DNA of 9,487 nucleotides, from IMG/VR virus record IMGVR_UViG_2534681766_000004; one strand, written 5' to 3'. Under the pieces are notes generated by a model. The model saw nothing but the letters and a program-made list of their open reading frames with translations, had not been told where the DNA came from and made no database searches. Below are positions 1-9,487 of this stretch, piece by piece. The position numbers and the translations under genes were made by a program. Numbering within the stretch: the stretch's first letter is position 1; the number at the start of each line of letters is the position of its first letter. The stretch comes from a virus (taxonomy: Duplodnaviria; Heunggongvirae; Uroviricota; Caudoviricetes).

Positions 1-21
1 TGAGGCAGGGAAACGCATGCA

Positions 22-54
22 AAGCCATGCACCTTATCGATGCATGGCTTTTTT
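22..54. terminator. Hairpin terminator just 3' of psu, possibly bidirectional
   Basis: Perfect 10-bp inverted repeat aagccatgca / tgcatggctt (22-31 and 41-50) with a 9-nt loop, followed by TTTTTT at 49-54 on the + strand. On the minus strand it lies just downstream of the psu stop at 85-87. Confidence 0.4.
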
Positions 55-84
55 CAGTAAAAACGGGCGGATTTTCGGGGAATT

Positions 85-642
85 TTACACAGACTGACGT
101 GATGCCAGTTGCGCACTTTTACGCGAAAAAATCATGTTCTGCGCAGGAGTGAATTTTTCACGGCTGTCATCCACCGAAGCCGCGTCAGGCCTGAATCCGA
201 TGGCCGTTAAAATGTCGCTATCCTGTACGGAATAATTAATTTTTTCACCCTTCGCAAGCCAGGACAGAAGGGCTTCACGCAGGGCATCTGTGGCACGCTG
301 TATGGCACAGTTTCGGGCAATGGCCGTCAGCTCACTGTAGCCCATCAGCTCCGGTGCCAGTGCCGCCGCCAGTGCTGTGCCGTGCTGCTGCATAAAATCA
401 TTCAGCCGGTCGCGGATGCTGATGTGCTGAACGGCTTCATGCGAACGAATATAACGACCAGCGGCCTGATTCACCTGCCATTTTCTGACTTCGATAATAT
501 TGCGTAATTCGTCCAGGCGACTGACGTTTCTGCCTTCTCCTGACAGAAGCCGCAGATATTCCTGTTCGGCCGCTGCCAGCTCATTTTTGCGTTGCAGCCA
601 TGCTGCTTTGTTATTCTGACAGGTGTCAAAGGCCTGCTGTAG
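85..642 (-). pseudogene. psu: Polarity suppression protein Psu homolog, 5'-truncated with no in-frame canonical start codon
   Basis: The minus-strand frame is open from 666 down to the stop at 85-87. From codon 640-642 it reads LQQAFDTCQNNKAAWLQRKNELAAAEQEYLRLLSGEGRNVSRLDELRNIIEVRKWQVNQAAGRYIRS..., which I recognise as Psu-like. Upstream of 642 the frame runs into antisense alpha-derived sequence and hits a stop at 667-669 with no ATG/GTG/TTG; the first possible start is the internal GTG at 472-474 (the 129-aa ORF in the track). Confidence 0.55.
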
Positions 643-736
643 CCCCGCAGGAGCGCGACCCGCAGCTTAAGGACAAAATCACCCGCGAGCTGGCGGTCAT
701 CGTGCGTCACCTGATGCAGAAGTTCAGCGACCCGAT
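640..736 (+). repeat. Ectopic 97-bp exact copy of an internal alpha gene segment, overlying the delta/psu junction
   Basis: 640-736 is base-for-base identical to 6399-6495 in the same orientation (compared by hand). The flanking bases differ on both sides: 639 g vs 6398 a, and 737 t vs 6496 g. Confidence 0.9.
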
Positions 737-1212
737 TGTGTTTTTAACCGTACTGGCGGCAGTTCCTGTTTTTCATGCAGGCGTTCTGCCAGTTCGTCCG
801 GTGTGACCGGGCGGACAATGAAGCGGTTGATGGTCTGAAGCGTTTTAAACACCAGACCACAGCCCGGATCCGTGCACACATAAAAACGCTCGGTGACTTC
901 CTGAGACAGACGCCGCGATGTTCTTGACAGCGCAAGGCCTTTACATCTCCGACAACAATATCCGGTAACAAGCATTCTTTTCGGGCGTTTCATGCTACCG
1001 GAGGCTGACGTCAGTGAATCGCGGTATCTCTGTTTGCCTGAAATGTATTCCATTCCTGAATCTTTACAGTCAGAGAAAAAGCTTTCACTCGCTTCAAATG
1101 TCGCAGAGCAATAAATATTCCGGCACTGTGCAATCATTATCTTGGTGCCATCGTCCATGAAATGTGCGCGACGGGTGTGAGCAACATGTCCACACGACGG
1201 GCAGTAAATCAT
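724..1212 (-). CDS. delta: Delta late-gene transcriptional activator (tandem Ogr-like zinc-finger protein), C-terminus altered
   Basis: 162-aa ORF with two Ogr-type C-x2-C-x22-C-x4-C zinc-finger units (MIYCPSCGH...CRNIYC and YCCRRCKG...CTDPGC). Its ATG at 1210-1212 overlaps the sid stop (ATGA). The last codons and the stop (724-736) lie inside the alpha-derived 97-bp segment. Confidence 0.8.
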   Translation of the reverse strand: MIYCPSCGHVAHTRRAHFMDDGTKIMIAQCRNIYCSATFEASESFFSDCKDSGMEYISGKQRYRDSLTSASGSMKRPKRMLVTGYCCRRCKGLALSRTSRRLSQEVTERFYVCTDPGCGLVFKTLQTINRFIVRPVTPDELAERLHEKQELPPVRLKTQSGR

Positions 1213-1943
1213 GACAGCAGTCCTCTGGCCTTAAGCTCTGCTCCCTGCTGGTCTATTTTGTCCTGCCACACCTTGCGCTGTGCCGGTGTGCCTGCCACCT
1301 CATAATCCATGTGCGGGAGTGTTGCCGCTGACAGTCCGGTCAGCCGGAGAACCGGCTCGCCGGTGAGGCTGATTTGCATCTGTTTTATTTTCTGTTCCAG
1401 CGATGATTTCACCTGCTGCATGACAGCTTTATCGGGTGCGACGTAGCCCTGATGCCCGGTGGTGTTGGCGAGCGGATTTTCCTGTACCAGAATGCTCAGA
1501 TGCATTGCCCGGACAAGCGCCTCACAGGTTTCATTCAGGGCGTGTTCCAGCTCATGCTCTGCATACAGACTCAGCAGGTGATGATGTGCCTTCCGGTAGG
1601 CGGTGGCCGTGCTGTCACACGCCCCTTTCAGGCGTTCACGTTCGAAATTCAGCACCACGGCCAGATTGTCATATTCCTGTACCAGCTCCCGGCGTGCCAC
1701 GCGCTCAATGTGGCGCTGTTTCAGCTCGTCGCTCAGGACACCACCGGCTGCACGAAAGGCCGTGCGCCAGTCGTCAGCGTCGTTTCCGTCGGCCTGCGCC
1801 AGCGCATTTTTTTCCTGCTCTGCCCGTTCAATGGCCGTGACGGTCTCATCCATCAGGCGGGCGTTCTCAAGATGGGCGGCTCTGGCCTTTTCCAGTTGTG
1901 CCAGCGCGGGTTGCAGATATTCAGGGATGGTGTTGTCAGACAT
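1209..1943 (-). CDS. sid: Sid external scaffold (capsid size determination) protein
   Basis: Minus-strand ORF. The ATG at 1941-1943 gives 244 aa starting MSDNTIPEYLQPALAQLEKARAAHL..., preceded by a GAGGAG-like Shine-Dalgarno. The protein is coiled-coil-like and alanine/glutamate-rich. The 266-aa version in the ORF track is an upstream in-frame extension. Confidence 0.85.
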   Translation of the reverse strand: MSDNTIPEYLQPALAQLEKARAAHLENARLMDETVTAIERAEQEKNALAQADGNDADDWRTAFRAAGGVLSDELKQRHIERVARRELVQEYDNLAVVLNFERERLKGACDSTATAYRKAHHHLLSLYAEHELEHALNETCEALVRAMHLSILVQENPLANTTGHQGYVAPDKAVMQQVKSSLEQKIKQMQISLTGEPVLRLTGLSAATLPHMDYEVAGTPAQRKVWQDKIDQQGAELKARGLLS

Positions 1944-1968
1944 TTTCCGGCTCCTCGTCACTTCAGGT

Positions 1969-2033
1969 TGAGAAAATTGTGACGTACACCGGACAACAAC
2001 ACGACGCATTGCAGATGTGCCAGCCCTGACACA
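1969..2033 (-). promoter_or_regulatory. Psid-like late promoter with two Delta/Ogr-type TGT-N12-ACA boxes
   Basis: TGT-gacgtacaccgg-ACA at 1978-1995 and TGT-gccagccctgac-ACA at 2016-2033, centres about 38 bp apart, directly upstream of sid on the minus strand. P2/P4 late promoters use TGT-N12-ACA activator sites. Confidence 0.5.
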
Positions 2034-2112
2034 GGAGACTCATCCTCAGACCGGCAAGCCAGGAAAAGGTCGCAGGAAAAACCGGCTTACTGTTTGTTTT
2101 TTTATATTTTAC

Positions 2113-2216
2113 TGTTCACCTCTGTTAACCATAAGAAAAAAGATAAGTAATACAGTAAGTTAAAGGGTGAACAATCGCAGTAATGACTGTTCACCGTCTG
2201 TTCACCACTGTTCACC
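2113..2216. repeat. Replication origin (ori1-like) iteron cluster, alpha-binding TGTTCACC octamers
   Basis: TGTTCACC at 2113-2120, 2188-2195, 2199-2206 and 2209-2216; the variant TGTTAACC at 2123-2130; the reverse-complement GGTGAACA at 2166-2173. The region is AT-rich and non-coding, about 4.8 kb from the crr repeats downstream of alpha. Confidence 0.7.
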
Positions 2217-2351
2217 CGTTGATGGGCTTTTTATGCTGTTTATTACTGTTTATTTTTATTAATTCACTGAAATAAATAAGAAAAAACAATTTGCATTTCA
2301 CTATAAAAAATTCCAGTTCCTTCAGAACCCTTTGAGACCCTTCCAGTCCGG

Positions 2352-2543
2352 ATGGATAAAAAACACACAGCCATTGTAAGGTTGCCGGAACAAATTCCCC
2401 CTGTTGCGTCTGCTGAAAATATTCACAAAATAAAGCGCTACCCGAAGCCGGACGGACTTATCCGGTGCTGTATGGACATTAACGAGGTAGCCCGATGCAA
2501 GCTGTTTTTTCTTCCCCGTCTCCCGCCCCTGTTACGCCACTGA
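2352..2543 (+). CDS. Hypothetical small protein (63 aa); may instead be untranslated leader or immunity region
   Basis: ORF in the track with no convincing Shine-Dalgarno; it overlaps the better-supported downstream gene by 49 bp in another frame. Confidence 0.2.
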   Translation: MDKKHTAIVRLPEQIPPVASAENIHKIKRYPKPDGLIRCCMDINEVARCKLFFLPRLPPLLRH

Positions 2544-2761
2544 TGCCGCTGCCGGACATCACGCAGGAGCGTTTTTTACGTCTGCCGGAAGTGATGCACC
2601 TGTGCGGCCTGTCACGCTCGACCATCTATGAACTCATCCGTAAGGGGGAATTTCCGCCGCAGGGGAGTCTTGGCGGTAAAAATGTGGCCTGGCTGCACTC
2701 TGAAGTCACCGCATGGATGGCCGGGCGCATTGCCGGACGCAAACGGGGGTACGACGCATGA
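2495..2761 (+). CDS. AlpA/Vis-family small helix-turn-helix regulator (88 aa)
   Basis: Contains [28 protein letters not shown], typical of the AlpA / phage excisionase-like HTH family. GAGGT Shine-Dalgarno 6 nt before the ATG at 2495. Its stop overlaps the next ATG (ATGA at 2758-2761). Confidence 0.75.
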
Positions 2762-3348
2762 TGATGCCCGCTCTGCAAAAACTCCCTTTTTCTGGCTTGC
2801 CTTTTTCCGGCATTTGCGGATATAGTTTTTCCGCTGCCGCAAAATCGGCAGCCGGGCGTGAGAACCCGAGTATGTTATCGGCGACATATGACGCGCCATG
2901 CGTCTTTTTTTGTGTCGCAATCAACGCCACAGAGCGCCAGATTATGGTGTGGCGTGTGGTTTGCCGTGCAGGTATGATCCTGTTCGCAATCGCATGTTAT
3001 GCCACTGAGTCAATGGTAGCTCAGGCGGGGCAGCCTCCGGGCTGGCCGGTATCCGATAACGCCGGTATTCTCACCCCCGTCTGGGCTATCGCCATCGAGC
3101 GTGAGAACTCCGGCGATAGCGTCATTTACGCTGTTATCGGAGGTTGCCTTATGGCTACGACCCTTACCCCCTCACACCCTGAATTTGTCTTTGTGTTTGC
3201 GGCTGTCCGTCGCGCAGACCGTCATCCCCGTATCTGTATGCTTCGCACCGTCGCCGGTGATGAACGCAGCGCCCGCCGTTCCCTTGTCCGTGACTATGTG
3301 CTCTCCCTTGCTGCCCGTCTGCCGGTGGTGGAGGTGTCCCGTGCGTAA
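2758..3348 (+). CDS. Hypothetical protein (about 196 aa)
   Basis: ATG at 2758 overlaps the stop of the upstream gene, and its own stop overlaps the next start (GTGCGTAA). The composition of this frame is more protein-like than the overlapping +2 frame (3101-3340), which is P/L/S/C/R/W-rich. Confidence 0.5.
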
Positions 3349-3628
3349 TAAAAAAGCCCCTCAGACCGTCTCAGCGCGTCATGACGCCCGTGAACACCTC
3401 AGCATTGAGGCTTACCATAAGCTCAACCGCGCCAGCGCCGTATCCCGGTTTGTTGGGGGTGATTTGATTCACCGTGAACTCTCCGGCCTGCATCAGCTCT
3501 ACATTCCGCATATTTTCAGCTACCTGAATGAAGATATTGATTTTGTGCTGAATGAACTGAAAGCCAAAGGCCTGTGCCGCGATTTTCTCGCCCAGCAGAA
3601 AGACCGGGGAGACAGGACGCATGTTTGA
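3341..3628 (+). CDS. Hypothetical small protein (95 aa, GTG start); position and size would fit a P4 epsilon-type gene, not verified
   Basis: GGAGG Shine-Dalgarno 7 nt upstream of the GTG at 3341. There is no internal Met, so the start must be non-ATG. Its stop overlaps the next ATG (ATGTTTGA). Confidence 0.5.
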
Positions 3629-4076
3629 TTTTCCCCAGCCCGGTGAGATTTACCGTTCTGCCGGTTTTCCCGATGTGGCCGTGGTCGGCATTCTGGAAGA
3701 CGGTATTCCGTGGGAAATGCCGTACCGCTGCCCGGAAATTGTCTGGAACCCGTACCGCCGTAAATTCAGTATCCTTGTGCGTATCCTCGCCGACGGGCGC
3801 ACCACAGACATCCCGCTGGGGCGTTTTCTGCGGGAATTTACCTGTGACCGTCCTGACCTGTTTAAACGCAGCCCCGTAAACCGGCATGCGGTACTGAAAG
3901 AAATGGCCGGAGACCCGGAATTACAGAAATGGCGGGAGAAATATCTGGATATTTACCCGCAGGACCCTGTTCCGGTCAGCCGGGCGGCACCGGTGGCGCG
4001 GGAATGGCGGGAAATTCCCCGCACGGAGCCTGACCCGGAAACCACCCCGGATAACAGTTACCGCAATTATCTGTAA
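3621..4076 (+). CDS. Hypothetical protein (151 aa), orf151-like
   Basis: ATG at 3621 is coupled to the upstream stop. The length equals the P4 orf151 that sits upstream of alpha in my recollection; function unknown. Confidence 0.6.
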   Translation: MFDFPQPGEIYRSAGFPDVAVVGILEDGIPWEMPYRCPEIVWNPYRRKFSILVRILADGRTTDIPLGRFLREFTCDRPDLFKRSPVNRHAVLKEMAGDPELQKWREKYLDIYPQDPVPVSRAAPVAREWREIPRTEPDPETTPDNSYRNYL

Positions 4077-4211
4077 TTAAAAAACGACCCCCGAAAAATT
4101 AAATGTGCGTATTCGCGCAGGGATACGCACGTCTTCAGGAGACGCAGATATGCCTTATCAGTTAATGCAACCGGCACGGAATGCAGTCATCTGTCACAGG
4201 GAGGAAAACAA

Positions 4212-4532
4212 ATGAAAACACCCTTACCGCCCGTCTTACGCGCTGCCCTTTACCGTCGCGCTGTCGCCTGTGCCTGGCTGACCGTGTGCGAACGTCAGCA
4301 CCGCTACCCGCATCTCACCCTTGAGTCACTGGAGGCGGCCATCGCCGCTGAGCTGGAAGGCTTTTATCTGCGCCAGCACGGTGAGGAAAAAGGGCGTCAG
4401 ATAGCCTGTGCCCTGCTGGAAGATTTAATGGAATCCGGCCCCCTGAAGGCCGCGCCGTCGCTGTCCTTTCTCGGGCTGGTTGTGATGGATGAACTCTGTG
4501 CCCGTCACATAAAAGCGCCGGTACTGCACTGA
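4212..4532 (+). CDS. Hypothetical protein (106 aa)
   Basis: GGGAGG Shine-Dalgarno about 7 nt upstream of the ATG at 4212; it ends 14 bp before the alpha start. Confidence 0.6.
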
Positions 4533-4546
4533 AGGAGAACTACACC

Positions 4547-6880
4547 ATGAAAATGAACGTAACCGCCACCGTCAGTCATGCGCTCGGCCACTGGCCGCGT
4601 ATTCTCCCGGCGCTGGGGATTCAGGTGCTGAAAAACCGTCATCAGCCCTGTCCGGTCTGTGGCGGGAGTGACCGCTTCCGTTTTGATGACAGGGAGGGGC
4701 GCGGCACCTGGTACTGCAATCAGTGTGGTGCCGGTGACGGCCTGAAACTGGTTGAAAAGGTGTTTGGTGTCTCCCCGTCCGACGCGGCCACAAAGGTGGC
4801 TGCCGTGACCGGCAGCCTGCCCCCGGCTGACCCGGCAGTGACGGCTGCCGCCGGTGCTGAAACAGACGCTGCCCGGAAGAACGCCGCCGCACTGGCACAA
4901 ACCCTGATGGCGAAAACCCGTCCCGGAACCGGTAACGCCTACCTGACCCGCAAGGGCTTTCCCGGCCGGGAATGCCGGATGCTGACCGGCACACACAGAG
5001 CCGGTGGCGTGAGCTGGCGTGCCGGTGACCTTGTGGTGCCACTGTATGACGACAGCGGCGAACTGGTTAACCTTCAGTTAATCAGTGCTGACGGCCGTAA
5101 GCGCACCCTGAAAGGCGGGCAGGTCAGGGGCACCTGTCACATCCTTGAAGGACAGAATCAGGCCGGAAAACGTCTGTGGATAGCGGAGGGATACGCGACC
5201 GCACTTACCGTGCATCACCTGACCGGTGAAACGGTGATGGTGGCGCTTTCTTCCGTGAATCTCCTTTCTCTGGCCAGCCTTGCCCGGCAGAAGCATCCGG
5301 CCTGTCAGATTGTCCTTGCTGCTGACCGTGACCTCAGCGGTGACGGCCAGAAAAAAGCCGCCGCAGCCGCAGATGCGTGTGAAGGTGTTGTTGCCCTGCC
5401 GCCGGTCTTCGGTGACTGGAATGATGCCTTCACGCAGTACGGCGGGGAAGCCACCCGTAAGGCCATTTATGATGCCATCCGGCCACCGGCTGAAAGCCCG
5501 TTCGACACCATGAGCGAAGCGGAGTTTTCCGCCATGAGTACCAGCGAAAAGGCCATGCGTATCTATGAGCATTACGGCGAGGCGCTCGCGGTCGATGCCA
5601 ACGGCCAGCTTCTGTCCCGCTATGAAAATGGTGTCTGGAAGGTGCTGCCGCCACAGGACTTTGCCCGGGATGTGGCCGGGCTGTTTCAGCGTCTGCGCGC
5701 GCCGTTCTCCTCCGGGAAGGTGGCCTCCGTGGTGGACACCCTGAAGCTGATTATTCCGCAGCAGGAAGCCCCCTCCCGCCGCCTGATTGGCTTTCGTAAC
5801 GGCGTGCTCGACACGCAGAACGGCACGTTCCACCCGCACAGTCCGTCACACTGGATGCGCACCCTGTGCGATGTGGATTTCACCCCGCCGGTGGACGGTG
5901 AAACGCTGGAGACCCACGCCCCCGCGTTCTGGCGCTGGCTTGACCGTGCCGCCGGTGGCCGTGCGGAAAAACGCGACGTGATTCTGGCCGCACTGTTTAT
6001 GGTGCTGGCAAACCGCTACGACTGGCAGCTCTTTCTGGAGGTGACCGGTCCCGGCGGCAGCGGCAAAAGTATCATGGCCGAAATAGCCACCCTGCTGGCC
6101 GGGGAGGATAACGCCACGTCGGCCACCATTGAGACGCTGGAATCCCCGCGTGAACGTGCCGCGTTAACTGGCTTCTCACTGATACGCCTGCCGGACCAGG
6201 AAAAATGGAGCGGCGACGGAGCCGGACTCAAGGCCATCACCGGCGGCGATGCAGTGTCCGTTGACCCGAAATACCGGGATGCGTACTCCACGCACATCCC
6301 GGCGGTGATTCTGGCCGTGAACAATAACCCGATGCGCTTCACCGACCGCAGCGGCGGCGTGTCACGCCGGCGGGTGATTATTCACTTCCCGGAACAGATA
6401 GCCCCGCAGGAGCGCGACCCGCAGCTTAAGGACAAAATCACCCGCGAGCTGGCGGTCATCGTGCGTCACCTGATGCAGAAGTTCAGCGACCCGATGCTCG
6501 CCCGGTCACTGCTTCAGTCCCAGCAGAACTCAGACGAGGCACTGAACATCAAACGGGATGCCGACCCGACGTTTGATTTTATCGGCTATCTGGAAACCCT
6601 GCCGCAGACCAGCGGCATGTATATGGGGAACGCCAGTATCATCCCGCGTAATTACCGTAAATACCTCTATCACGCCTATCTGGCCTACATGGAGGCAAAC
6701 GGCTACCGGAATGTACTCAGTCTGAAAATGTTCGGGCTGGGGCTACCGGTGATGCTGAAGGAATACGGACTGAATTACGAGAAGCGCCATACCAAACAGG
6801 GGATACAGACCAACCTGACGCTGAAAGAGGAAAGCTACGGCGACTGGCTGCCAAAATGTGACGACCCTGCAACAACCTGA
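4547..6880 (+). CDS. alpha: Alpha protein: bifunctional DNA primase / helicase with C-terminal origin-binding domain
   Basis: 777-aa ORF with an AAGGAG Shine-Dalgarno. N-terminal zinc-binding primase motif CPVCGGSDRFRFDD...WYCNQCG; a Toprim-like segment; Walker A GPGGSGKS; the conserved RRRVIIHFP...DPQLKDKITRELAVIV motif typical of D5/P4-type primase-helicases. Antisense ORFs inside it are GC-rich noise. Confidence 0.95.
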   Translation: MKMNVTATVSHALGHWPRILPALGIQVLKNRHQPCPVCGGSDRFRFDDREGRGTWYCNQCGAGDGLKLVEKVFGVSPSDAATKVAAVTGSLPPADPAVTAAAGAETDAARKNAAALAQTLMAKTRPGTGNAYLTRKGFPGRECRMLTGTHRAGGVSWRAGDLVVPLYDDSGELVNLQLISADGRKRTLKGGQVRGTCHILEGQNQAGKRLWIAEGYATALTVHHLTGETVMVALSSVNLLSLASLARQKHPACQIVLAADRDLSGDGQKKAAAAADACEGVVALPPVFGDWNDAFTQYGGEATRKAIYDAIRPPAESPFDTMSEAEFSAMSTSEKAMRIYEHYGEALAVDANGQLLSRYENGVWKVLPPQDFARDVAGLFQRLRAPFSSGKVASVVDTLKLIIPQQEAPSRRLIGFRNGVLDTQNGTFHPHSPSHWMRTLCDVDFTPPVDGETLETHAPAFWRWLDRAAGGRAEKRDVILAALFMVLANRYDWQLFLEVTGPGGSGKSIMAEIATLLAGEDNATSATIETLESPRERAALTGFSLIRLPDQEKWSGDGAGLKAITGGDAVSVDPKYRDAYSTHIPAVILAVNNNPMRFTDRSGGVSRRRVIIHFPEQIAPQERDPQLKDKITRELAVIVRHLMQKFSDPMLARSLLQSQQNSDEALNIKRDADPTFDFIGYLETLPQTSGMYMGNASIIPRNYRKYLYHAYLAYMEANGYRNVLSLKMFGLGLPVMLKEYGLNYEKRHTKQGIQTNLTLKEESYGDWLPKCDDPATT
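6399..6495 (+). repeat. Native copy, inside alpha, of the 97-bp segment duplicated at 640-736
   Basis: Identical to 640-736. Here it is in frame within alpha and encodes a conserved primase-helicase motif (APQERDPQLKDKITRELAVIVRHLMQKFSDP), so this is the original and the copy at 640-736 is the ectopic one. Confidence 0.9.
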
Positions 6881-6896
6881 CCCTCATGACTCATCT

Positions 6897-6921
6897 GACC
6901 GGCATCTGCCGGTCTTTTTTT
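6897..6921 (+). terminator. Rho-independent terminator of the alpha operon
   Basis: Stem gaccggc (6897-6903) pairs with gccggtc (6908-6914) around a 4-nt loop, followed by TTTTTTT at 6915-6921, 17 bp after the alpha stop. Confidence 0.6.
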
Positions 6922-6939
6922 ATCCCGATATCCCCCGCA

Positions 6940-7240
6940 GGTGAACAATCCACTGTTCACCCTTCACCGTATATTCACCCGTTATCATACTGAAATTAAA
7001 AGAGAAAAACGAAAGGTGAACAGTGTGAACAATCAAATCAAAAAAAACTTTTTTTCTCCCTGTGTGATTTCAGTACGGGGGATTAATCACCGGTATGAGT
7101 CACACCGGCAGAATGCCGGAGGTGAAGAATCGAATGTTCACCCTTCACCCATTATTCACCACCTATCATACTGAAATAAAAGGAGAAAACAGAAAGGTGA
7201 ACAGTGTGAACAGTTCTTTCGAAAAAAAAATTTTTTCCTG
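6940..7240. repeat. crr (cis replication region): two direct repeats of about 108 bp carrying TGTTCACC / GGTGAACA iterons
   Basis: Repeat 1 (about 6953-7062) and repeat 2 (about 7134-7240) align closely (..tgttcacccttcacc..tcatactgaaat..aaaggtgaacagtgtgaaca..poly-A/T). Each carries several octamers matching the ori iterons. The 77-aa ORF at 6941-7174 is a translation of these repeats. Confidence 0.75.
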
Positions 7241-7289
7241 TACGATATAGCATCAATCCAAGTAAAAATGCGCTTTCATTTCACATTAA

Positions 7290-7400
7290 CTTACAGCCAT
7301 TGGTATACGATTAGGTATACGCACAAAAAATGAATTAAACAAAATCATTAAAAATCAAAGCAATACAATATTTATTCAAACTCCGCCAGCCAATATTGAT
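7290..7400. other. Possible attP-like region (AT-rich, short direct repeats, tRNA 3'-end-like stretch)
   Basis: Tandem GGTATACG at 7302-7309 and 7314-7321; repeated AAATCA; ttcaaactccgccagcc at 7377-7393 loosely resembles a tRNA T-loop/acceptor 3' half. Position between crr and int is where attP lies in P4. Weak and unverified. Confidence 0.2.
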
Positions 7401-7426
7401 GTACTGAAGTTCAGTAAAGTCTACTA

Positions 7427-7460
7427 AGCCCGCACAGCACAAGCTCTGCGGGCTTTTTTA
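7427..7460 (+). terminator. Rho-independent terminator upstream of int
   Basis: Stem agcccgca (7427-7434) pairs with tgcgggct (7447-7454), followed by TTTTTT at 7455-7460. Confidence 0.5.
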
Positions 7461-7515
7461 CGTCTATTGTAGTCTAGTGAGAATTGCTGAGAACTACGAG
7501 TTATGGCACCCTGAA

Positions 7516-7553
7516 TGGGACCCACGAAGATGGGTCCTAAAATCGAGGGTCCC
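7516..7553 (+). promoter_or_regulatory. Inverted GGGACCC / GGGTCCC repeats in the int leader, overlapping its Shine-Dalgarno
   Basis: gggaccc at 7517-7523, gggtcct at 7532-7537 (6 of 7) and gggtccc at 7547-7553. The last overlaps the GAGGG Shine-Dalgarno of int, so pairing could sequester the ribosome-binding site or form a protein-binding site. Confidence 0.3.
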
Positions 7554-7557
7554 AAAC

Positions 7558-8787
7558 ATGGCCAAAATCGCTAAGAAGCTCACTGACACTGAAATCAAAA
7601 GCACCAACCCTGCCGAAAAAGAGGTTAACCTTTTTGACGGCGATGGTTTGCTGTTGCGAATCGCTCCCCTGGCGAAGGGAGGGAAGAAAAATTGGTATTT
7701 CAGATATGCAGTGCCTGTGACCAAAAAGCGAACTAAGGTGAGCTTAGGAACCTATCCTCACCTTACACTTGCGAAGGCACGAGCTTTACGTGATGAATAC
7801 TTGTCGTTGCTTACAAATGGTATAGACCCCCAAGTTCATAACAACCAAAAAGCCAATGCACTGAAAGATGCCACGGAACATACATTTCAAGCAGTAGCCA
7901 AGAAGTGGCTTGATGAGAAAGTCAAAACGTCAGGCATCTCCCAAGATCATGCTAACGACATCTGGCGAAGCCTAGAGAGAAATATCTTTTCCACATTGGG
8001 TGATACCCCAATTAAGGAGATTCGCCCTAAAATGCTTAAACAGCATTTAGAACCCATAGAAAAACGAGGGGTCCTTGAAACACTTCGCCGCATCATATCC
8101 CGCCTGAATGAAATTTTCCGCTATGCAGCAACAGAAGAACTCATAGAATTCAACCCGGCAGACAACCTGGGGCAACGGTTCAGCAAGCCAAAAAAACAGA
8201 ATATGCCAGCATTACCCCCTTCCGAACTCCCTCGCTTCTTGGTTGCTCTAAACAATGCTTCTATCCGTTTGGAAACAAGGCTACTGATTGAGTGGCAACT
8301 TCTCACATGGGTTCGCCCAGGTGAAGCTGTTCGCACAAGATGGTCAGATATTGATATTGAAACTGGCATGTGGAACATCCCGGCGGAGTTTATGAAAATG
8401 AAGAAGCCTCACAAAGTTCCACTGAGCAAAGAAGCTTTGCGAGTTTTGGATTTAATGAAAGTCATCAGCGGGCATAGAGAGTGGGTGTTCCCCAGTATCA
8501 AAGCTCCACTCAATCACATGCATGAACAAACAGCTAATGCGGCCATAATCCGTATGGGTTTCGGAGGTGAGCTTGTAGCTCACGGTATGCGATCCATTGC
8601 TAGAACGGCTGCTGAGGAGTCTGGCAAGTTTAGGACTGATGTCTTAGAAGCCGCCCTTGCCCACTCGAAGAAAGATGAAATAATTGCAGCCTACAATCGT
8701 GCAGAGTATCTCACTGAACGGGTGGTTCTCATGCAATGGTGGAGTGACTATGTTTCGTCTCAAAAATGCAAAGTTATTGCCGCATAA
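7558..8787 (+). CDS. int: Tyrosine site-specific integrase, P4 family (N-terminal arm-binding domain plus C-terminal catalytic domain)
   Basis: 409 aa from the ATG at 7558 (MAKIAKKLTDTEIK...) with a GAGGG Shine-Dalgarno. N-terminal arm-binding-like region (GLLLRI...KNWYFRY...LGTYP); catalytic signatures VRPGEAVRTRWSDID, HGMRSIART (HxxR) and AAYNRAEY (nucleophile Tyr). The upstream in-frame extension from 7477 begins right after a stop and is not credible. Confidence 0.9.
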   Translation: MAKIAKKLTDTEIKSTNPAEKEVNLFDGDGLLLRIAPLAKGGKKNWYFRYAVPVTKKRTKVSLGTYPHLTLAKARALRDEYLSLLTNGIDPQVHNNQKANALKDATEHTFQAVAKKWLDEKVKTSGISQDHANDIWRSLERNIFSTLGDTPIKEIRPKMLKQHLEPIEKRGVLETLRRIISRLNEIFRYAATEELIEFNPADNLGQRFSKPKKQNMPALPPSELPRFLVALNNASIRLETRLLIEWQLLTWVRPGEAVRTRWSDIDIETGMWNIPAEFMKMKKPHKVPLSKEALRVLDLMKVISGHREWVFPSIKAPLNHMHEQTANAAIIRMGFGGELVAHGMRSIARTAAEESGKFRTDVLEAALAHSKKDEIIAAYNRAEYLTERVVLMQWWSDYVSSQKCKVIAA

Positions 8788-8849
8788 CTCTCCCATGATG
8801 GATTAACTATCTTGATTTAGTTAAAGAATTAATAATCACACCATTAACC

Positions 8850-8899
8850 TATGTGGACTAAGCATAGCCATTTACAAATGGGGACATTGAGTCCACATA
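8850..8899. repeat. Perfect 10-bp inverted repeat with 30-bp spacer between int and the recombinase gene
   Basis: tatgtggact (8850-8859) and agtccacata (8890-8899) are exact reverse complements, in an AT-rich non-coding spacer. Confidence 0.6.
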
Positions 8900-9069
8900 A
8901 CGAAAGCTGTCGGTCATATCAGCTAAATAATTCACATCTCTTCTCGATTATCATACACCTCGAAGATCTACCAAATTCGCTCTAATCAATGATAAAACAG
9001 TTGAATTCGGTTGAAATTTGATCAATTTTATCCACTACATTGTATTGAATCATCCATGAGGTTTCGTGC

Positions 9070-9487
9070 ATGGCTAGCGAAAATGACAAAAATCATAGAG
9101 TTAGGGTCGCGCAGTACTTGAGGATGTCTACCGACCATCAGCAATATTCTTTACATAATCAGTCCGAATATATCAAAGATTATGCTGAAAAGAACAATAT
9201 GGAAATCGCTTATACCTACGATGATGCAGGTAAGAGCGGAGTCAGTATCGTAGGCAGGCATTCTTTGCAGCAGTTACTTAGCGATGTAGAACAAAAGAAA
9301 ATAGATATACAGGCTGTATTATTTTATGATGTGAGCCGTTTTGGTCGTTTTCAAAATAGTGATGAAGCGGCATATTATCCCTTTCTATTTGAGAGAAATG
9401 GTGTAGATCTTATATATTGTTCCGAACCTATACCCACTAAAGATTTCCCTTTAGAGTCCTCTGTTATACTGAATATAAAAAGATCTA
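9070..9487 (+). CDS. Serine recombinase-like protein (resolvase/invertase-type catalytic domain), 3'-partial
   Basis: ATG at 9070 with a GAGG Shine-Dalgarno 8 nt upstream; the frame is open to the window end (139 codons). Translation RVAQYLRMSTDHQQYSLHNQ...DDAGKSG...RHSLQQLLSDVEQKKIDIQAVLFYDVSRFGR matches the serine recombinase N-terminal motifs (Y-x-R-x-S-T-x-x-Q nucleophile region, D-x-x-SG, R-x-x-L-x-x-LL). It is absent from the ORF track because it has no stop within the window. Confidence 0.6.
   Translation, partial: MASENDKNHRVRVAQYLRMSTDHQQYSLHNQSEYIKDYAEKNNMEIAYTYDDAGKSGVSIVGRHSLQQLLSDVEQKKIDIQAVLFYDVSRFGRFQNSDEAAYYPFLFERNGVDLIYCSEPIPTKDFPLESSVILNIKRS

Follow-up and report, generated by a model that had tools for sequence, protein, structure and literature searches.

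The DNA described here is a stretch of 9,487 nucleotides (nt) from a virus of the Caudoviricetes (IMG/VR record IMGVR_UViG_2534681766_000004), referred to below in its whole length as the window, which begins within a satellite closely related to phage P4 and ends, past a fall in guanine plus cytosine (GC) content, with a tyrosine integrase gene and the first part of a large serine recombinase gene. The subject of our analysis is the joint between these two parts, which in all likelihood (probability of about 0.9) is the junction of two independent integrative elements standing in tandem at the 3' end of ssrA, the gene of transfer-messenger RNA (tmRNA). Comparison with P4 (NC_001609) revealed 97.4% identity over window positions 1-7236, the homology ending at 7236 with the end of the cis replication region (crr). 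The matching genes follow in the order psu (88-645), delta, sid, immunity region, epsilon, orf151, orf106, alpha and crr, and nt 1 of the window corresponds to nt 11544 of P4, which lies 80 nt from the right cos end of that genome. On both sides of the junction the window carries the following features.

4547-6880, forward strand: alpha primase-helicase gene, the last GC-rich gene of the satellite core, with 99% amino acid (aa) identity to P4 alpha (776/777 residues).
6897-6921, forward strand: alpha transcription terminator, a hairpin with a T-run, found by a terminator scan; its counterpart is annotated in P4, and the support interval of the GC change-point (6883-6992) begins here.
6935-7237, no strand: crr, part of the satellite core yet AT-rich (0.405), recognized by repeat search and from the P4 crr annotation.
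7300-7323, forward strand: arm repeats of the satellite-type integrase, two GGTATAC units 12 nt apart (7302-7320), the distal arm of the satellite's attR.
7375-7391, forward strand: degenerate copy of the ssrA 3' end, TTCAAACTCCGCCAGCC, the core of the satellite's attR and the final satellite bases, placed by junction alignments.
7392-7557, forward strand: leading edge of the second island, the same DNA that stands directly 3' of intact ssrA in satellite-free genomes.
7558-8787, forward strand: tyrosine integrase gene (409 aa) heading the second ssrA-specific island, of the P4 family and CP4-57 IntA-like according to Pfam, NCBIfam and identity.
8788-9069, no strand: AT-rich spacer (GC 0.35) from the integrase gene to the recombinase gene; other species have it conserved to 95-99%, along with the genes that follow.
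9070-9487, forward strand: large serine recombinase gene, first 139 codons, cut by the window end; the translation starts MASENDKNHRVRVAQYLRMSTDHQ, and the protein has 518 aa in relatives.

As to the INDEPENDENCE of the two elements, the block at 7461-9487 was present at a coverage of at least 80% in 601 of 5,426 complete Escherichia coli genomes (531 of the 601 at an identity of at least 99%), and the whole window in 67. The entire window is contiguous in E. coli chromosomes, the best match (L001) reaching 98.1% identity. L001 opens with smpB, ssrA, integrase 1, a gene for a 567-aa cargo protein, the satellite genes from psu to alpha, and crr, and continues after crr with integrase 2 (that of the window), the large serine recombinase, two ParB genes, an hsdM fragment and the insertion sequence (IS) IS3; three further genomes (L005, L006 and L007) carry the window arrangement in the same layout. 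Two integrases, 50% identical in aa sequence, head one element each in these four genomes, and only the second falls within the window. Each element also occurs by itself: the satellite without the island in L003, and the island without the satellite beside ssrA in L002 and in eight species of other genera (Enterobacter, Phytobacter, Kluyvera and Leclercia among them), in which the ssrA-int-recombinase-ParB-ParB block with about 0.8 kb more is 93-100% identical and smpB about 80% identical to that of E. coli. The end-points of the BLAST matches agree with two separate boundaries: crr matches of other satellites end at about 7237-7240, crr-side matches of satellites integrated at ssrA stop at 7391-7394, and satellite-free genomes match only 7386/7392-7460, on or beside ssrA. 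From 7392 (AATATTGATG...) the window is 99.9% identical to the DNA just 3' of intact ssrA in L002 (16932 onward). The tRNA/tmRNA scan of the window returned none; the ssrA remnant, which is short and degenerate, was located by alignment to the ssrA flank of relatives.

The alignment of the junction in six sequences revealed how the two elements meet. The right arm of the satellite, with its end ...TTCAAACTCCGCCAGCC(CACCA), is common to the window, L001, L003, L005 and L006, and is followed by the island in the window, L001, L005 and L006 and by unrelated DNA in L003. The attR of the window is without the 5-nt CACCA that L001, L003, L005 and L006 carry, and the junction of L007 is an exact ssrA tail. 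The GGTATAC arm pair, GGTATACNNNNNGGTATAC, has a single occurrence in the window and none among 200 shuffles, and four GGTATAC copies stand directly upstream of the satellite's own int beside ssrA in L001, L003, L005, L006 and L007. On the island side of the core the arm repeats are of another type, namely tandem GGCACCC/GGGACCC at 7505-7523 and inverted GGGTCCT/GGGTCCC at 7532-7553; the GG[G/C]ACCC pair was matched in just 3 of 200 shuffles, and this type precedes integrase 2, about 128 nt past an ssrA tail, in every locus examined, with the satellite or without it. The attP of P4 consists, in order, of crr, two tandem 12-nt arm repeats, the core, two tandem and one inverted arm repeat, and the start of int, and all six P4 arm repeats share the consensus TGGGGGCAY on both sides of the core. 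Since the arm repeats of the window differ across the core, unlike those of P4, the att region is no attP but a hybrid, formed by attR of the satellite and attL of the island.

This comparison bears directly on the model of the preliminary description, in which the integrase at 7558-8787 belongs to the satellite, the window follows the circular or virion order of P4, and the recombinase is the first cargo gene of the hotspot between int and cos. The succession of alpha, crr, arm repeats, core, arm repeats and int is indeed the order of the P4 virion genome, down to the same spacing of crr, arm repeats, core, tandem and inverted repeats and int start, and the int (GC 0.46) and cargo (0.36) of P4 are likewise AT-rich. 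We nevertheless regard this model as highly improbable: besides the change of arm-repeat type across the core, a degenerate ssrA-tail core could not regenerate ssrA, the DNA from 7392 onward is the native ssrA-downstream DNA of satellite-free genomes, the full-length matches are all contiguous chromosomal sequences with another integrase upstream of psu, and the int-recombinase block occurs without the satellite in more than 500 genomes and eight other species. The attP, the int and the leuX-type core (GAGTCCGGCCTTCGGCACCA) of P4 are absent from the window, in which the att region is a hybrid with an ssrA-like core.

The integrase contains the Pfam domains Arm-DNA-bind_3, Phage_int_M and Phage_integrase above cut-off and matches NCBIfam PRK09692 with a score of 442.2 bits (cut-off 434), and its catalytic residues align with those of P4 Int: VRPGE (R252), HGMRS (H342, R345), LAHS (H369) and AAY (Y379). 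In aa sequence it is 50% identical to the int that the satellite itself carries and 35% identical to P4 Int, and at the nt level it is 80% identical to a record annotated 'Prophage CP4-57 integrase' (intA). Judged by these sequence comparisons, the integrase in the window is not that of the satellite, and its predicted role in integration and excision at ssrA is consistent with the position beside ssrA that it has kept in nine species. The spacer behind it contains a perfect 10-nt inverted repeat, TATGTGGACT (8850-8859) and AGTCCACATA (8890-8899), 30 nt apart, which could be an operator, a terminator or a site of the recombinase.

A different explanation is a composite element or an exchange of integrases, by which the source satellite would have lost its integrase, or never have had one, and would use that of the neighbouring island, or both elements would move as one unit. 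In its favour, the two integrases share the ssrA 3' end as their target and half of their residues (50% identity), frequent exchange of integrases between P4-like and other elements has been reported (PMC8628076), the satellite copy in the window bears signs of decay (replaced psu start, attR without CACCA), and the left flank of the window lies outside the sequence. However, every related genome examined keeps the satellite-type integrase and the GGTATAC sites at both satellite ends, the distal arm in the window is GGTATAC and not GG[G/C]ACCC, and the att site that the island integrase would use at the far end was not found in 15 loci, so that we consider a composite or swapped element unlikely.

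Element 1 is a P4-like satellite, represented by window positions 1-7391 (psu to alpha, crr and attR), with its own integrase, cos and hotspot beyond the left end of the window, beside ssrA; element 2, from 7392, is an ssrA-specific island headed by the gene of the CP4-57 IntA-like integrase, after which come the genes of the large serine recombinase and of two ParB/RepB proteins and then cargo that varies. The sequences show the boundaries and the independence of the two elements and the mismatch of their arm sites; the order of events may have been the following. The island would have been resident beside ssrA first. The satellite integrase would then have recombined its attP (GGTATAC arm sites and a core like CCGCCAGC(C/TC)CACCA) with the ssrA 3' end, the crossover most likely falling in the terminal CCACCA of the shared core, because the C versus TC difference upstream of it is kept in attR. 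Such an insertion would put about 10.9 kb between ssrA and the island (the offset is 10,885 nt in L001), the satellite supplying the gene with a fresh 3' end and with a terminator homologous to that of the island, while the older terminator of the island and the control region of its int would be pushed downstream of crr. With CACCA gone, the presumed crossover core has lost a part, and this copy of the satellite may be impaired in its precise excision.

The terminator hairpin of ssrA is present as an orphan copy at 7426-7459. Homologous hairpins (AAGCCCGCA[C/T]AGCACAAGCTCTGCGGGCTTTTTT) are present at the left ends of both elements, that of the island at window 7426-7459 and that of the satellite at 16557-16590 of L001. 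The terminator of ssrA comes from whichever element adjoins the gene, and the displaced copy stays as an orphan between crr and the island int.

Several points weigh against the reading of two elements in tandem. The window stops at psu, so that relatives of 96-98% identity, and not the source of the window, show the satellite integrase and ssrA. The far end of the second island, which a displaced ssrA fragment and GG[G/C]ACCC arm pairs would mark, was found in none of the 15 loci that were fetched and searched, and element 2 is therefore delimited on its left only and may be a decayed, immobile remnant; its right end in E. coli is rich in IS elements. The core of attR in the window is degenerate with respect to ssrA and without CACCA, and the exact point of crossover is thus inferred. 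The activity of either integrase is a prediction from sequence.

Our analysis of base composition confirmed that the break in GC content and codon usage noticed in the preliminary description is real, with GC 0.563 at 1-6900 against 0.417 at 7211-9487. Its position had to be revised: placed after crr, at 7211, in the preliminary description, the drop in fact starts at the alpha stop codon and crr start, before crr and about 250-330 nt further upstream. A single maximum-likelihood change-point was obtained at 6969 (2-lnL support 6883-6992), with a log-likelihood ratio of 81.9 compared to a maximum of 19.9 among 300 block shuffles. By feature, GC is 0.609 in alpha, 0.405 at 6900-7250 (crr region), 0.386 at 7251-7548, 0.460 in int, 0.350 in the spacer between int and recombinase, and 0.369 in the recombinase fragment. 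Codon usage, tested on reading frames verified by tblastn, differed between the nine core genes and int plus the recombinase fragment (chi2 = 285.6, df 57, p = 3.7e-32); the control comparison of alpha with the remaining core genes gave chi2 = 82.5 (p = 0.0045). The pooled GC content at third codon positions (GC3) is 0.641 for the core genes and 0.423 for int and recombinase, and alpha alone has a GC3 of 0.71. The core, described as GC-rich at 1-6900, is uneven, with a dip to 0.395-0.45 at 2001-2600, in the sid-orf88 intergenic region and the control region of P4 ori and immunity. Just past this AT-rich dip, at 2820-3096, Rfam matches (isrK, C4 antisense RNA and the a1/b1 targets) correspond to the normal P4 immunity region.

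The reference P4 genome, divided in the same way, has a GC content of 0.561 in the core, 0.39 in crr, 0.393 in the att region, 0.462 in int and 0.362 in gop-beta-cII, and since P4 has the same split, composition alone cannot decide between int and hotspot of the satellite itself and an island next to it. These values also bear on the view that the window holds one P4-like element of intrinsically uneven composition and no second element. The change-point interval of 6883-6992 falls within the satellite, some 400-500 nt short of the element boundary, and crr, att region and int are AT-rich in P4 as well; such heterogeneity accounts, however, for 6900-7391 only, and 7392 onward is a different element that is found independently of the satellite. 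As a full explanation it is refuted and of hardly any probability, and we retain it as a partial contributor. The GC drop is a two-part one: 6900-7391 comprises crr and the att arm, which are AT-rich in the satellite as they are in P4, and 7392 onward is low-GC island DNA, in which int has 0.46 and the recombinase and ParB genes 0.32-0.34. The host flanks in the closest genome have a GC content of about 0.50, the satellite core lying above and the right-hand part below this value.

The AT-rich part had been taken for the variable P4 hotspot between int and cos/psu, which the window was thought just to enter at its right end. It is the other way round. The published hotspot of P4 lies between psu and int and adjoins cos (PMC9122126), and with psu at 88-645 and nt 1 only 80 nt from the P4 cos end, it must lie just to the left of the window and not to the right, so that the window starts at the hotspot and the integrase at its other side belongs to another element. 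In all four tandem genomes examined and in the satellite-only L003, the satellite's own integrase stands beside ssrA, upstream of psu. The DNA between psu and this integrase encodes a 567-aa protein with a weak ApeA-like match in L001 (17900-19603), AriA/AriB of PARIS in L006 (9414-11731), a 908-aa P-loop NTPase in L007 (5920-8646) and two unannotated hypothetical proteins of 219 and 299 aa in L003 and L005. Variable gene content of the hotspot kind was thus seen solely left of the window, in relatives. The region 7211-9487 follows alpha and crr and does not lie between psu/cos and the satellite integrase, and the window has no cognate integrase with one arm type on both sides of the core. The proposed comparison with the gop-beta-cII region of P4 gave no homologue of gop, beta or cII within the window.

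The preliminary description was right in so far as the AT-rich DNA is variable, was acquired horizontally and has an integrase at its head, with variable cargo further downstream in relatives. Its expectation of defence cargo immediately downstream of 9487 was not borne out: relatives carry there the remainder of the recombinase gene and two ParB/RepB genes, none with a defence profile match. Following the sequence past 9487 in relatives did lead, farther out, to an intact type I restriction-modification (R-M) system in L002, which is cargo of a different element. Past about 0.8 kb of conserved DNA the cargo differs, with the intact type I R-M system and IS elements in L002 (the only locus with such a system downstream), a RelA/SpoT-related fragment in L005, and TIGR04141 and Hxs in L007. 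Variable and partly defence-related cargo hence exists downstream of 9487 but belongs to the other element. A window-type integrase allele of 79% nt identity was as well observed in L006 (20849-24803), where it is followed not by the recombinase and ParB genes but by genes for proteins of 138 aa, of 582 aa (with a receiver domain) and of 572 aa (ATP-binding), all three without a PADLOC match; because these genes differ, the cargo varies directly past the window-type integrase too.

Within the satellite core, crr consists of two 122-nt direct repeats (6935-7056 and 7116-7237). Farther to the left, window positions 640-734 are an exact 95-nt copy of 6399-6493, a segment internal to alpha, which stands in for the native segment of about 112 nt (delta end, intergenic DNA and psu start) of P4 and L001. 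By this replacement psu has lost its start codon and ribosome-binding site, the longest open reading frame left being 129 aa, and the last codons of delta are altered (162 aa compared to 166). Among 5,426 complete E. coli genomes, not one reached a coverage of 80% over window 560-820, and none shares this arrangement. The alpha copy is either a private rearrangement or an artefact of assembly or editing. The replaced psu start together with the CACCA missing from attR suggests a decaying copy of the satellite.

Arrangements of this kind are familiar. Tandem arrays of islands at tRNA and tmRNA genes are reportedly the theme of 'Traffic at the tmRNA gene' (Williams, 2003). Arrays at these target genes (tDNAs) are defined by a separate fragment and integrase for every island, and no target is more enriched than the tmRNA gene (PMC4383910). 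The window agrees with the tandem tDNA arrays of Islander/TIGER in the succession of intact target, first island with integrase, displaced fragment and second island with integrase; it differs in that the junction fragment is degenerate and truncated and that the fragment of the second island was not found in 15 loci. Of the features by which Islander recognizes islands, each of the two has its own integrase and occurs independently at the same target, and a displaced fragment is present for the satellite at 7375-7391 (degenerate here, an exact tail in L007) and for the second island in none of those loci. An integrase next to alpha has been reported for less than 1% of the P4-like elements and explained as belonging to a neighbouring element (PMC8628076). 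CP4-57 and other IntA-type ssrA islands resemble the second island in having the integrase directly downstream of ssrA in the same orientation, whereas the cargo of the island in the window is unrelated (serine recombinase, two ParB/RepB proteins, variable type I R-M, Hxs/TIGR04141 and others). With the psu-int hotspot (Rousset et al. 2022, PMC9122126) the satellites described here share the variable cargo between int and psu, PARIS included, but the AT-rich region after alpha and crr is in another element. The tandem arrangement is therefore of an ordinary, already described kind and is present in annotated RefSeq genomes.

The practical meaning of the junction lies in a caution. The window resembles the circular map of P4 (alpha-crr-att-int), yet its integrase is that of a neighbour, and low GC content does not tell whose cargo is being looked at. 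Pipelines that assign the nearest integrase to a satellite, or that extend from it in search of hotspot cargo, would go the wrong way here, an error that published surveys avoid by anchoring on psu (PMC9122126, PMC8628076). A mismatch of arm-repeat type across the att core is a simple test, from sequence alone, by which a true attP can be told from an attR/attL hybrid in tandem arrays.

The recombinase gene that is cut by the window end leads to a further group of genes. The fragment in the window holds the serine motif YLRMSTDHQ, and the full-length homologue in L001 has Resolvase and Recombinase domains (PF00239 and PF07508), in which it resembles the large serine recombinases CcrB, TnpX and phage integrases. 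It is followed in relatives by two genes for 298-aa ParB_N+RepB paralogues with overlapping gene ends (the three genes, here called the trio, occupy 29086-32421 of L001). These paralogues resemble CTPase-fold proteins of the ParB/KorB/Noc type in having the ParB_N and RepB domains both, and they contain the GxxRxxA-like motifs GQGRIEA and GHLRVEA; the trio is unlike ParB systems in having no ParA partner. Equivalog cut-offs are far from being reached (63 bits compared to 900 for CcrB and 50 compared to 315 for Noc). In PADLOC-DB v2 the recombinase and the first ParB protein had no matches and the second ParB protein matched only the ParB-like N-terminus of a methyltransferase model, and PADLOC, NCBIfam and PHROGs gave generic family matches only for the recombinase and ParB proteins.

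Morganella, Geobacter sulfurreducens, Trichlorobacter lovleyi and a metagenome contig each have a complete trio, of 39-43% identity. The trio of Xenorhabdus, of 55% identity, has its second ParB gene cut short by an IS, and in Salmonella only the recombinase and first ParB genes are called. The sizes of the proteins are about 517-534 aa for the recombinase and about 288-310 aa for the ParB_N+RepB proteins, and the gene ends overlap or are a few bases apart. Upstream of the trio, the Geobacter, Trichlorobacter and metagenome loci carry a gene of 86 aa on the opposite strand. In Trichlorobacter the trio is a compact unit amid genes of housekeeping type; in Geobacter and E. coli it stands beside type I R-M or abortive infection (Abi) genes. 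One seemingly independent locus, VE-T2, is a relocated copy of the same block truncated at its 5' end.

In three loci the trio is followed, 50-100 nt past the second ParB gene, by about 244 nt that repeat the 3' end of int (nt ~985-1230 of the gene) with about 80% identity, so that the trio is bracketed by repeats of the int 3' end.

L007, 21518-21779: copy of the int 3' end.
L011, 8995-9203: copy of the int 3' end.
L012, 4403-4627: copy of the int 3' end.

Because this displaced fragment comes after the trio in all three, the trio might insert into the 3' ends of P4-family int genes. Against such a nested cassette, the breakpoints of int mosaics (nt ~50-400 and 600-750 in L007, ~600-900 in L011) lie off the start of the fragment at nt ~985, and among 60 of the 64 E. 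coli genomes with the fragment flank no empty site was found. Nested insertion was thus tested and not confirmed, and the copy of the int 3' end is either the trace of a nested cassette or the remnant of a third tandem island.

Our literature searches returned no description of the trio. It is conceivable, although we hold it as a tentative proposal, that the gene cut by the window end opens a conserved recombinase-ParB-ParB module, undescribed so far, which would be either a self-contained cassette for mobility and maintenance or an unrecognized defence-associated module. As a cassette, the module could be moved by the serine recombinase, while the pair of ParB proteins, which has no ParA, might serve in an accessory role, in directionality or in silencing. 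Widespread (its int-recombinase block being counted in 601/5,426 complete E. coli genomes) and uncharacterized, the trio is possibly the one new item at this locus and the sole lead with discovery potential.

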